A DNA stretch of 64,000 nt from Enterobacterales bacterium (GTDB taxonomy: Bacteria; Pseudomonadota; Gammaproteobacteria; Enterobacterales; GCA-2746155), in contig OZ252282.1 in NCBI GenBank assembly GCA_965250035.1, forward strand, positions 657,395 through 721,394, in the 5' to 3' direction. Made by a program: the position numbers and the translations under genes. Of the stretch, positions 15,110 through 37,968 are shown one piece after another; within the stretch, counting starts at the first letter, position 1; each line of letters starts with the position of its first letter. The notes beneath the pieces were generated by a model. The model was not told where the DNA came from, made no database searches, and saw nothing but the letters and a program-made list of their open reading frames with translations.

Positions 15110-17530
15110 ATGAAAACTCACGGAATAGATATTGTTAAACTCGCACAGATAATTGCTATACTCAGTTTGTTCGGGTGCGTATCTAACCTTAATGCGACTG
15201 GTTATGTCGACCGACAGACACGAACTGCTTACTACCAGACTTGTATATCTAATGGGCACGATTATTTTACTAACGTCCCTCACAACCAAATATTTCTAGA
15301 GATAGAAATTGGTGAGAATGATGCTATTACACCAGGCATGTGCGTTGGAACTTCCATCGATCATGTCCACAATACCTATACATGTACACGATCTGGGCCA
15401 GAATATATTGTTCAGTCAACATCAGGAACAGGAAATCCAATCCCCGACTCATATCAAGTAAGGCAAACGTTTCACTGCGTTAGTTCTACATACAATGACA
15501 CGACCACCTCTTCACAAGTAGCAGCGACAGCGATTAAAACGTCAAAAACTGTCACTGATTGTGGATTAACCCCCACGCATCCCAAGAAAGTCACTGTAAA
15601 TGGGCAATTGAAATGTGAGCCAGAGCCTATTCCATGTGAAATTGACACACAACAGAAATGCAGTTCAATACCAAATGGCTCTAACCCAATTTATCAAGCA
15701 ATTTCTCCAGAGTTATCCTTATCACAAAATGCCCCTAATCCAATTAATATTGGCAGCTGCAGTACGAATACATCCACAATACCTGATGAAATTAATGACT
15801 ATCAAGCGATGAGTATTGAAAGAGATTTTCAATTAAATACTGAGTTTGATACACCACTCGTCACAATCCACAACCCTCATACAGGCAATGCCTACTCATT
15901 TTCTGATGATGGGGCTGGTGGTTTTACGACTGAGTCAATCCATAATGCAAGGCTTGAAGGCACCACGGATGGCCAGGGTAATCTGACAGGGTATAACTTG
16001 GTACTTAGCAATGGTTCAGTTGAGAACTACAATGTGAATGGTCGCCTATCCTCAATTACCCAACGAAATGGACAGGGTATCACCATTGGGTATAACTCTA
16101 ATGATAAACCAACAACGCTTACAACCTCATACGGAAGAGTGACGACTTTAAGCTACGACACATCAGGTAAGTTATCGACAATTATTGAAGCTGACAACCA
16201 AACAACCACACTTGAGTATGATACATCTGGAAGGCGTAAAAAAATCATTTTTGATGATAATACTAGTGGCACACTGACTGATAATCCATATGTTGAATAT
16301 CATTATGATGATACCAATAACACAGGTTTGATTACCCGTATATCTGATGAGTCAGGTACTGAGCTTAGAAGCTGGACATACGATGTGGATGGCAATGTTC
16401 TATCTGAAACTGATTCAGGTGGCACTCAATACTTCACATATAATGTCGATGATTCGATCACGATTACGAACAAATTAGGAAAAGATACAACCTATCACTA
16501 TACGATTATTAATGGTGAACGACTCATCACACAGGTTGAAGGCGTTGCGTCGGCAAATTGTGCAGGCGCTAATCAGTATAAGTCATATGATAGGAATGGT
16601 GCACTTATAAGTAAGACTGACTGGTCTGGCAATACGACGAATATCTTGAGAGACAGTCGAGGTAACGAGATAAGACGGATCGAAGCACTAGGTAGCGTTG
16701 ATGAGAGAGTAATACATACCGAGTGGCATGATACATACAAGCTACCTGTTAGAGTAATTGATGACTCTCGACAAACAATATTCAGCTATGACAGCAATGG
16801 AAACTTGCTTAGTAAGGCCACTTCTGAAGCTGACCCAAATTATACAGTCCCAGACAGTGCATCTGTATCACCCCCTACCGACTACATTGCCTATTGGCCT
16901 ATGGAGTCAATTAGTTCAAACACCATCACAGACCAAGTTGGTAGTCATGATGCTTCAGTCGTAGGCAGTCCATCTATCAGTGCTTCTGGCCGAGTTGGTA
17001 ATGCACTCAGTCTTAGTGGGAGTGGTCAGTATGCAACGATTATTGATGATCTGTCATTACAGCCCACGGAAGTTACTATTTGTACATACGTCAAAGGCAA
17101 CGCAAACGCGATAAATGATACTGTTTTTCAATCCTATTCAAAAACGCCCAATATCTCCGGATTCAAACTGCAAGCGTGGTCAAACGGATATATAGGTTTT
17201 CTTGTGGGCGATTATTCAGGTGCTTCTAAAAATGTAGGATACGCTGCGATAAGTATCGGAAAGGTCAATGATAATACCTGGCATCATGTATGTGCCTCAT
17301 ACGATGGAAGCTACCTAAGAGGATATTATGATGGAGTGCTGACAAGCGAAAAGCCATACAACAACGGCATAAAATATTCGTTGACGAATTTTGTTGCAAT
17401 TGGGACATTGTTTAACACAAGCACTCAGCATACTACATTTAATTTCAACGGACTGATAGATGAGTTGAAATTGTATGGTCGAGCTCTTAGTCATGAAGAA
17501 GTGTTGGCGATATTTCTAGAAAACGAATAA
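15110..17530 (+). CDS. A1: secreted YD-repeat protein with Cys-rich N-domain and C-terminal LamG (Laminin_G_3-like) domain
   Basis: 806 aa with SD AGGAAG. The hydrophobic signal ends ...LSLFGC, a possible lipobox. YD/RHS repeats include NYNVNGRLSSITQRNG, LSYDTSGKL, LEYDTSGRR, WTYDVDGNV and FSYDSNGNLL. The last 216 aa (16880-17527) carry LamG hallmarks: WHHVCASYDGSYLRGYYDG and FNGLIDELKLYGRALSHEEV. Confidence 0.88.
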   Translation: MKTHGIDIVKLAQIIAILSLFGCVSNLNATGYVDRQTRTAYYQTCISNGHDYFTNVPHNQIFLEIEIGENDAITPGMCVGTSIDHVHNTYTCTRSGPEYIVQSTSGTGNPIPDSYQVRQTFHCVSSTYNDTTTSSQVAATAIKTSKTVTDCGLTPTHPKKVTVNGQLKCEPEPIPCEIDTQQKCSSIPNGSNPIYQAISPELSLSQNAPNPINIGSCSTNTSTIPDEINDYQAMSIERDFQLNTEFDTPLVTIHNPHTGNAYSFSDDGAGGFTTESIHNARLEGTTDGQGNLTGYNLVLSNGSVENYNVNGRLSSITQRNGQGITIGYNSNDKPTTLTTSYGRVTTLSYDTSGKLSTIIEADNQTTTLEYDTSGRRKKIIFDDNTSGTLTDNPYVEYHYDDTNNTGLITRISDESGTELRSWTYDVDGNVLSETDSGGTQYFTYNVDDSITITNKLGKDTTYHYTIINGERLITQVEGVASANCAGANQYKSYDRNGALISKTDWSGNTTNILRDSRGNEIRRIEALGSVDERVIHTEWHDTYKLPVRVIDDSRQTIFSYDSNGNLLSKATSEADPNYTVPDSASVSPPTDYIAYWPMESISSNTITDQVGSHDASVVGSPSISASGRVGNALSLSGSGQYATIIDDLSLQPTEVTICTYVKGNANAINDTVFQSYSKTPNISGFKLQAWSNGYIGFLVGDYSGASKNVGYAAISIGKVNDNTWHHVCASYDGSYLRGYYDGVLTSEKPYNNGIKYSLTNFVAIGTLFNTSTQHTTFNFNGLIDELKLYGRALSHEEVLAIFLENE

Positions 17531-17647
17531 GAAAACTATGGTCATGAAACTCTGAATATATGTAATGCTCACACTAAACATATCATTTCATTTATAAATT
17601 AATAATAGCCAAATACAACCCGTTAATGAAATCCTCGAGGAAGATTA

Positions 17648-37663: not shown

Positions 37664-37677
37664 TGTGAGGCGCATCT

Positions 37678-37968
37678 ATGGAAATTGAGAGTAATGTTTA
37701 CATTTTAATCGGCTCTACTATAGTAGCTACCTTTGGTTGGTTTGCCAGTAAAAATATTGAAAACATCCGGGTCAGAAGGGCCGTGAAGACATCTATTATT
37801 TATTTAATACTCCCAATACCATTCCTAGGGCACCCCTTATTTTATTATCAGGTATGTAGTTTATTGATTTACTACATCATTGATTTCAACTTGCAAGGAT
37901 TATTAGTCTTGTTGATTATTTGGCTTGGCTTGGTTGTTATTAGTCAGTATAGGATAAAGTCTCACTAA
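37678..37968 (+). CDS. I2: candidate integral-membrane immunity protein for the B2 toxin
   Basis: 96 aa, starting 14 nt after the B2 stop. Three hydrophobic helices (ILIGSTIVATFGWFA, IIYLILPIPFLG, LLVLLIIWLGLVVI). Confidence 0.6.
   Translation: MEIESNVYILIGSTIVATFGWFASKNIENIRVRRAVKTSIIYLILPIPFLGHPLFYYQVCSLLIYYIIDFNLQGLLVLLIIWLGLVVISQYRIKSH

Follow-up and report, generated by a model that had tools for sequence, protein, structure and literature searches.

Two loci of an Enterobacterales bacterium that probably encode a genetically split Rhs polymorphic toxin

Introduction

Here, we describe two neighboring loci in a 64,000-nucleotide (nt) stretch of DNA from an Enterobacterales bacterium (assembly GCA_965250035.1, contig OZ252282.1, positions 657,395 to 721,394 of the forward strand), referred to below as the window, which in combination with the mechanism proposed below are likely to constitute a genetically split polymorphic toxin of the rearrangement hotspot (Rhs) family. 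In this system, the shell of tyrosine-aspartate (YD) repeats is divided between the products of two genes, called A and B, the latter of which also carries the toxin, and each B gene is followed by a small gene for a putative immunity protein, I. The original prediction, made from the letters of the DNA, comprised eight open reading frames (ORFs) in the orders A1-A2-A3-B1-I1 (15110-25957) and A4-B2-I2 (29484-37968); all eight were found at these coordinates on the + strand and both orders were borne out.

The sequence comparisons support an assignment in which A provides the shell's N-terminal third, in which an N-plug can be recognized in part, and B provides the other two thirds together with the C-plug and the toxin. 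We consider it very probable that A and B are two halves of one Rhs shell. For the whole mechanism, including export by the general secretory pathway (Sec) and the type II secretion system (T2SS) as well as targeting by A, the arguments are about evenly balanced. The loci are best described as one conserved toxin-carrying body with variable tips and an old, maintained set of alternative N-terminal pieces.

Division of the shell between A and B

B1 (22575-25454, + strand, 959 amino acids (aa)) and B2 (34700-37663, +, 987 aa; also recorded as 985 aa with the third Met taken as the start) are each composed of a signal peptide, the C-terminal two thirds of a shell, an Rhs-associated core and a toxin. 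The signal peptide of B1, as read from the sequence, spans aa 1-23 (22575-22643, +), a layout that matches that of the B proteins of other loci. The YD repeats follow straight after this signal, as had been predicted: in B1, ...GFTVNA is directly followed by DQTTSYTYN, and 11-12 RHS_repeat stretches are found in B1 and B2 (E 1e-64 to 1e-66). The canonical Rhs-associated core was also recovered, with TIGR03696 matches above the curated cut-off at aa 715-795 of B1 (24717-24959, +; E 1.4e-22), where it includes the C-plug, and at aa 723-804 of B2 (36866-37111, +; E 4.9e-21). PF03527 matches both B proteins, and the core is absent from A. In addition, both proteins retain the aspartyl autoprotease motif DPxG-x19-D(P/M)xG, i.e., DPIG-x19-DPNG at aa 769 of B1 and DPIG-x19-DMNG at aa 777 of B2. 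The DNA of the two shells is 98.9% identical over 2291 nt, and B1 and B2 differ only in the leader and the tip.

A1 (15110-17530, +, 806 aa) is composed of a signal-like N-terminus, a Cys-rich head, the N-terminal third of an Rhs shell and a C-terminal LamG domain. A2 (17648-20065, +, 805 aa) is a paralogue with the same layout and A3 (20185-22560, +, 791 aa), located directly upstream of B1, is a third paralogue of this type. A4 (29484-34694, +, 1736 aa) has a head and a shell piece as in A1-A3 and an Ig-like tail. Pfam searches agree with the domains originally assigned to these proteins. RHS_repeat (PF05593) matches A1-A4 with E 3e-17 to 2e-30, and TIGR01643 matches as well; in A1-A3, RHS_repeat is followed by a C-terminal Laminin_G_3 (E 1e-19 to 5e-24), found at aa 637-798 in A1 and, as a LamG/concanavalin-A-like domain, at aa 619-784 in A3 (22039-22536, +; E 1.3e-23), where it is attached at the point at which the chain exits the shell. 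The predicted Ig-like stalk of A4 appears as three Big_7 domains after RHS_repeat and then Y_Y_Y repeats. The Cys-rich nature of the A N-domain is seen in 7-12 Cys within the first 260 aa, compared to 0-1 over an equal span of B1 and B2. The N-termini of all six large proteins and of I1 display a short charged stretch and then a hydrophobic core, with hydrophobic 10-mers of mean Kyte-Doolittle (KD) value 2.3-2.9, which is what the predicted signals at the A and B N-termini would look like. The shell piece of A3 (aa 201-560; 20785-21864, +) covers the second half of the N-plug region and the first shell hairpins; using hhalign, A residues ~223-318 were aligned with the second half of the DUF6531 region and the first hairpins of the homologues (prob 98.6%).

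Solved closed shells comprise ~1020-1120 residues, of which B gives ~770 and A gives the N-terminal third. In Tse5, for example, the shell is defined by residues 48-1168, the N-plug (48-124) is DUF6531 and the C-plug motif is DPXG-X19-DPXG (PMC10684867). In alignments with single-chain shells, B covers only the C-terminal ~70%, consistent with the original view that its ~770 aa of YD repeats are similar in size to TcC of the Tc toxins and too few for a self-closing shell. With A3 as the query, numerous Rhs proteins of 1150-1380 aa were obtained, along with numerous short proteins that measure 520-660 aa. In the single-chain protein P0004 (1250 aa), residues 82-400 align with A3 205-544 (38% identity, E 1e-61) and residues 416-1111 with B1 25-799 (39% identity, E 2e-147). 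The same adjacent, non-overlapping mapping of A and B was seen in ~25 further single-chain relatives, with a gap of 7-25 residues (e.g., 176-513 and 520-1251 in P0008, 127-456 and 463-1194 in P0011, and 66-384 and 391-1200 in P0021). Because A and B map to adjacent, non-overlapping parts of these relatives, the YD segment of A and B together make up exactly one canonical shell. Placement of A by PDB sequence matches was dropped because the repeats match many registers, and the full-length single-chain homologues were used instead.

The two pieces were also modeled as an artificial fusion, A3[196-556]+B1[24-800], folded with an alignment of 29 single-chain relatives. The model has a mean predicted local distance difference test (pLDDT) score of 89.1 and a predicted template modeling (pTM) score of 0.82; at the junction, pLDDT is ~90, which matches the confidence of the neighboring regions, and the strands on either side join in one hairpin. 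Foldseek aligned the model over 1156-1212 columns (E 1e-50 to 1e-58) with complete Rhs cores, among them Advenella VgrG-Rhs (8qja), Salmonella bongori Rhs (8qjb/c/d), RhsA (7q97), Tse5 (8cp6_B), Tre23 Rhs (7pq5) and Tse15 (8uxt). The model shows that, as predicted structures, the A and B pieces are compatible with one closed shell. Both the profile searches and the structural comparison had been suggested along with the original prediction; RHS_repeat, TIGR03696 and Laminin_G_3 all matched, and the fusion aligns with complete Rhs cocoons. In a model of full-length A3, the shell piece is a confident partial sheet (pLDDT 70-92) and the LamG domain is of moderate confidence.

At the gene level, A3 ends with a double stop, TAATAA, which is separated from the B1 ATG by 11 nt that contain AAGGA; the A4 stop is followed after 5 nt by the B2 start, preceded by GGGAGA. 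A3 and B1 are in different reading frames, as are A4 and B2. A scan of the loci for promoters and terminators gave results no better than those obtained with shuffled sequence. The same genome harbors at least one further B (P0124, with a glycine-rich tip) and one further A1-like gene (P0128).

The split in other genomes

One genome per species was scanned with a profile of the A shell piece, which gave 322 relatives, of which the best 78 loci were kept (loci and proteins are referred to by L and P numbers, respectively). In 26 of these 78 the ORF ends 0-3 residues past one alignment position, i.e., at the same cut, and in ~48 it runs on in frame into the B part, so that the fused A-B ORFs sought in other genomes do exist; L029 and L079 are less clear cases. 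In split loci, the next ORF starts 0-90 nt downstream, and its product has a typical 22-33-aa signal peptide that leads into the conserved start of the shell, as seen in L034 (...NINAQ directly followed by QTTSYTYN), L047, L052, L055, L066, L030, L027 and L060. Adjacency of A and B is also conserved, with B directly after the last A in all 19 split loci for which more than 2.8 kb of downstream sequence was available. Most of the carriers belong to the Gammaproteobacteria, with Thiodiazotropha, Sedimenticola, Cellvibrionaceae, Pseudomonas fluvialis, Pseudomonas sp. F(2018) and Psychromonas aquimarina represented, and one is a Thiobacillus. Separate look-ups of short homologues revealed an A followed by a 1556-aa B in L002 and two A followed by a 1351-aa B in L004. 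Several A genes per B are found in L014 (four), L081 (three) and L008, L054, L077 and L078 (two each).

In a rough neighbor-joining tree of 89 shell pieces most split forms, A1-A4 among them, group together, and L011, L014, L025 and L079 fall among the fused forms. The parsimony minimum on this tree is 7 changes of state, and fission or fusion at the seam has probably occurred more than once. The split itself is widespread. The A proteins of other loci are tailless, with 0-3 residues beyond the seam, and therefore only the LamG and Ig/Y_Y_Y tails are special to the source genome.

The four A proteins of the window are 17-32% identical to each other in the heads, 39-51% in the shell pieces and 17-44% in the tails; for A1 and A2 the values are 32%, 51% and 44%, respectively, and the shell piece of A4 is 41-46% identical to those of A1-A3. 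Within the multi-A runs of other loci, heads are 20-46% identical, compared to 39-77% for the shell pieces. The tail Y_Y_Y units of A4 are encoded by a tandem repeat of 294 nt in 6 copies (32922-34679, +) with 93% matches, the last five protein copies of which are identical; the array could be a recent expansion or an assembly collapse/expansion.

Additional domains are found on the other side of the cut as well. In the B proteins of L011 and L025, ~640-730 aa of leucine-rich repeats (LRR) are located between the signal peptide and the shell start, and in the single-chain loci L022, L044 and L063 a ~370-aa insert that matches no assigned family sits exactly at the A/B seam. We infer from these arrangements that the seam is at the outer surface of the shell and accepts binding modules on either side of the cut. 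A separate observation concerns the same three loci (13862-16342 in L022), where the single-chain proteins of ~2670 aa have an insertion of six Golvesin_C repeats (E 3e-144) in the late part of the shell.

Two further features of the A proteins were noted. Lipobox-like sequences are present in A1 (LFGC, Cys23; 15110-15180) and A4 (IFSC, Cys16; 29484-29540), and on the basis of these motifs some of the A proteins might be lipoproteins instead of being secreted in soluble form. In NCBIfam, the LamG tails of A1-A3 give sub-threshold matches to TafC family fimbrial protein (E 4e-12 to 1e-6, well short of the cut-off), which hints at an adhesin-type use of the fold.

Alternative explanations

AlphaFold gives a confident partial YD sheet for A alone, and the A paralogues diverge while the B shells are nearly identical. 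These observations would also fit a model where A and B are functionally independent, i.e., A proteins are secreted or surface lectin-like adhesins with a partial YD sheet and B is a small Rhs toxin with an open shell or an unlinked partner. We nevertheless regard such independence as unlikely: the cut is exactly colinear with one shell and falls at the same residue in the 26 split loci, and A is adjacent to B, at a spacing of 0-90 nt, in 19 of 19 cases. Furthermore, the N-plug, which closes every solved Rhs shell, is missing from B, and an open shell would leave an unfolded toxin exposed.

The original prediction suggested a two-chain cocoon analogous to TcB-TcC. The colinear arrangement of A3 and B1 on single-chain relatives supports the two-chain shell; the choice of TcB-TcC as the comparison needs refinement. 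Because A has no beta-propeller or SpvB domain and solved TcB chains fit the fusion model poorly (TM ~0.1), a canonical Rhs shell that is cut ~330 aa past the N-plug is the appropriate comparison. For the same reasons there is very little room for a reading in which A and B form the BC-type subcomplex of a Tc (ABC) toxin that docks on a TcA-like translocator with its gene at another site of the genome. The known cocoon of two chains is TcB-TcC, and the fusion model does match TcdB2-TccC3 (E 1e-41 to 1e-43), with TcC chains covering ~690 columns (TM score normalized by target (TMt) 0.67); Pfam, however, detected no beta-propeller, SpvB or TcB-specific domain in A1-A4 and no TcA gene among the other window ORFs of at least 100 aa, and the neighborhoods of 21 split loci contain no recurrent large, TcA-like gene. 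Tc subunits are not known to be Sec substrates, which is a further point against this reading given the signal-like N-termini of A and B.

Most characterized Gram-negative Rhs toxins are type VI secretion system (T6SS) effectors, from which it could be argued that A and B are cargo of a T6SS encoded elsewhere. This is highly improbable: neither A and B nor the window were found to contain a PAAR, VgrG, prePAAR or adaptor domain, and A and B have Sec-type signal-like N-termini, which T6SS effectors are described as lacking (PMC11582642). Pfam scans of the other window ORFs of at least 100 aa likewise found none of the export components PAAR, VgrG, Hcp, TcA or TpsB, as originally noted, and no T6SS, PAAR or TcA genes are found as recurrent neighbors of the split loci.

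Rhs loci are prone to recombination and commonly contain truncated or orphan fragments, yet the idea that a single Rhs gene was broken by a nonsense mutation or frameshift, or is joined by programmed frameshifting, is hardly credible and was rejected in view of the four independent A genes of the window, in which heads and tails are intact, the double stop of A3, the ribosome-binding site, start codon and signal peptide that B1 has of its own, the different reading frames of A3/B1 and A4/B2, the LamG or Ig tail that intervenes between the two shell parts, and the recurrence of the same cut and of the signal peptide on B in 26 loci of many species.

Proposed mechanism

With A and B as two parts of one shell, the following sequence of events may be envisaged. 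Both chains would first be exported by Sec, and B would fold around its own toxin and cleave it free within the shell. One of the alternative A proteins would then complete and close the cocoon; we infer that this physical assembly takes place outside of the cytoplasm. The particle would leave the cell, most likely through the T2SS, after which the head and tail of A would bind the target surface. Upon release, the toxins of B1 (with an HExxH motif) and B2 (a possible phospholipase C) would appear to act on the envelope or membrane, and I1 and I2, as exported or membrane proteins, would protect the producer.

The signal-like N-termini suggest Sec export of both A and B. The source is a sparsely sampled gammaproteobacterium whose AlaRS shares no more than 73% identity with that of any named relative, and the outer membrane must therefore be crossed as well. 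The T2SS is probably the exit route. This suggestion is based on the gene neighborhood in three loci and on a precedent. L008 has a complete gspC-gspD-gspE-gspF cluster ~440 nt from its first A gene and divergent from it, and gspE-M operons are divergent from A in L002/L011 and in L006. A similar link in L050 was rejected, as its E/F genes are the type IV pilus genes pilB/pilC with a pilin, 5 kb away. The precedent is Bcn-A, an Rhs-family bacteriocin of Xanthomonas perforans that is active in the supernatant and whose activity is lost in a mutant of the T2SS secretin xpsD (PMC7259588). Signal-peptide RHS toxins are also listed as the "T2SS/Sec-dependent" class in the polymorphic-toxin survey by Zhang et al. 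2012 (PMC3482391).

A bolder and rather doubtful extension of the mechanism is that A is a detachable and exchangeable lid, such that the paralogues direct one loaded B to different targets and binding of the A head or tail to a receptor dislodges the lid and opens the cocoon. If true, a detachable lid would be a built-in release mechanism that has no counterpart in the single-chain Rhs toxins.

Toxin tips and immunity proteins

The tips of B1 and B2 differ despite the near-identical shells, and a small gene is found downstream of each B. The B1 tip (24960-25451, +) comprises 164 aa with HEFRH at aa 908 and a DDCSCFN tail. The B2 tip (37112-37660, +; ~184 aa) belongs to a recurrent family with 174 relatives at the C-termini of Rhs proteins, which has invariant His/Asp/Glu positions and a nearly invariant C179-x-C181; a word-index homologue search with this tip was empty, as was a profile search against PDB. 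The only recurring Pfam signal in the family is Zn_dep_PLPC, which is weak (E 1e-4 for P0329; 3 of 24 members with E up to 5e-4). On this basis the B2 tip is possibly a divergent zinc phospholipase C.

I1 (25457-25957, +), which has a signal-like N-terminus and 5 Cys, and I2 (37678-37968, +; 96 aa), with hydrophobic segments typical of a small membrane protein, are putative immunity proteins by position. The I1 ORF opens at a TTG at 25436, and the likelier start is the ATG at 25457 or 25472, which corrects the earlier coordinates. Taken together, the features of I1 and I2, the HEFRH of B1 and the weak phospholipase C signal of B2 point to the envelope or membrane as a toxin target, as a lead.

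Independently of this, a C-x-C sequence is found at the C-terminus of all three B toxins of the source genome, the tips of which are unrelated: DDCSCFN in B1 (25431-25451), DCSCYEY in B2 (37640-37660) and LCTCTIEN in P0124. Such tails are also present in the B proteins of L030 (RGCSCKP) and L077 (GKCSCNHF). Downstream of I1, a hydrophobic ORF of 95 aa (26141-26428) has no sequence relationship with I2 and might represent an additional immunity gene or an orphan one. Past I2, the region 38312-45694 contains ~12 small ORFs on the same strand, several with signal-like or hydrophobic N-termini, including an Imm32 family member at 38312-38638 (E 4e-8); these may be orphan immunity genes. There are no orphan Rhs core fragments in the window.

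Arguments against the two-part shell and its mechanism

A number of observations weigh against the reading of A and B as one exported, targeted particle. As regards the shell, the complex of A and B is deduced from the comparisons given above, and the fusion model, being driven by single-chain homology, does not test a non-covalent interface independently. One nearly invariant B shell would have to accommodate all four A proteins, which are only 39-51% identical in the shell piece. The DUF6531 (PF20148) N-plug was not called by Pfam in A1-A4, and in A the alignment is limited to the second half of the plug region; short A proteins of other loci do have PF20148. The A heads, to which a role in targeting is attributed, match nothing in Pfam, no relatives of them were detected in the A proteins of other loci, and in the full-length A3 model the head has pLDDT <50 and is uninterpretable.

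As regards export and action, T2SS genes adjoin A in only 3 of ~22 split loci, and no T2SS (gsp) genes were found by Pfam in the other window ORFs of at least 100 aa. The toxin tips and I1/I2 have no Pfam match (E up to 1) and no PDB sequence match. Finally, a toxin freed outside of the cell would still have to cross the outer membrane of the target.

Genomic surroundings

The window ends with housekeeping genes, as identified with Pfam, namely a branched-chain keto acid dehydrogenase (BCKDH) operon and alaS at one side, and rsgA, a TonB receptor and electron-transfer flavoprotein (ETF) genes at the other. Between them, from alaS/tRNA-Ser to rsgA (~8000-46000), the GC content is low, 34-42% compared to 46-52% in the flanks, and it looks as though the Rhs loci sit within one or several genomic islands. 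ARAGORN identified two tRNA-Ser(GCT) genes, at 8032-8124 and 12693-12783, which have only the 3' ~65 nt in common, like an att-type direct repeat. The pair flanks a 4.6-kb insert with a 1230-aa ORF (8684-12376), which is one of a few window ORFs that have no Pfam match. The stretch that separates the two Rhs loci encodes, at 28212-29027 on the - strand, a protein with a SMODS-associated NUDIX domain (PF18167, E 3e-35), which could be a remnant of a defense system.

Significance

A two-piece cocoon would bear on two questions, namely how an Rhs cocoon opens to let its toxin out and how Rhs toxins outside of the T6SS arrive at their targets, and it would make opening directly testable. The arrangement would also provide polymorphism at both ends, i.e., several alternative targeting pieces at one and variable toxin tips at the other. 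Among Gammaproteobacteria the split is a common feature, and cultured Pseudomonas and Psychromonas are among its carriers. Consequently, many short genes annotated as "DUF6531 domain-containing" or "RHS repeat protein" that reside beside shorter "RHS repeat-associated core" genes are probably halves of such a machine, not fragments. The tolerance of the seam to LamG, Ig and LRR modules suggests a site for engineered cargo carriers. If true, a natural and widespread two-piece Rhs cocoon with exchangeable lids would be moderately surprising to specialists.

Relation to known systems

The A/B/I architecture was not recognized as a described system in the original prediction, and our literature search, the coverage of which was incomplete such that a prior description is possible, did not reveal one either: no description of a split, bipartite or two-component Rhs was found in full text, the 2012 polymorphic-toxin survey (PMC3482391) does not mention a split, and the literature found on DUF6531 deals with single-chain proteins (e.g., PMC10684867).

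The single-chain signal-peptide Rhs toxins of the same clade (e.g., P0004, P0008, P0011 and P0016), which correspond to the "T2SS/Sec-dependent" class of Zhang et al. 2012, resemble A+B at 35-41% identity across the whole shell. They share the core, the variable tip and, as far as its second half aligns in A, the N-plug region, and many have signal-like N-termini. These toxins are made as one polypeptide, whereas here there are two genes, the downstream one with its own signal peptide and the upstream piece multiplied. Bcn-A is also a Gram-negative Rhs-family toxin from a multi-gene locus with a downstream immunity gene, and it requires a second small ORF with similarity to Rhs (PMC7259588). 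It differs in its layout (ORFA, ORF2, ORF3, ORF4, ORF5) and in that ORFA, with 1398 aa, was modeled as a plug, a beta-propeller and a YD barrel (PMC7259588), a distinction that is drawn from the published description only. WapA of Gram-positive bacteria is likewise exported by Sec and is a polymorphic toxin of the YD-repeat type that has a cognate immunity gene (PMC12704120); in contrast to A/B, it is a single chain that is anchored to the cell wall of a host without an outer membrane.

The T6SS Rhs effectors (RhsA, 7q97; Tse5, 8cp6; Rhs1/Tre23, 7pq5; Tse15, 8uxt) have a shell fold and length like those of joined A+B, share the C-terminal aspartyl-protease motif, have a DUF6531 N-plug and form non-covalent multi-fragment particles after autoproteolysis. 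They differ in having PAAR, VgrG or clade domains, no signal peptide and a shell made from one chain. The TcB-TcC cocoon (4igl, 4o9x) is the closest functional analogue, being a YD cocoon of two polypeptides with the toxin on the C-terminal chain, where B is TcC-like in size and position, and one shell partner can be combined with alternative partners (PMC11067744). TcB, however, is much larger, at ~1450 aa, and has a beta-propeller gate for docking on TcA, whereas A has only ~360 shell residues and a plug remnant, with no linked TcA, and B reaches ~110 mature residues further toward the N-terminus than TcC (phmmer offsets). By function and fold, the A/B system is therefore an Rhs polymorphic toxin that departs from its family in one defining feature, the shell made from one polypeptide.

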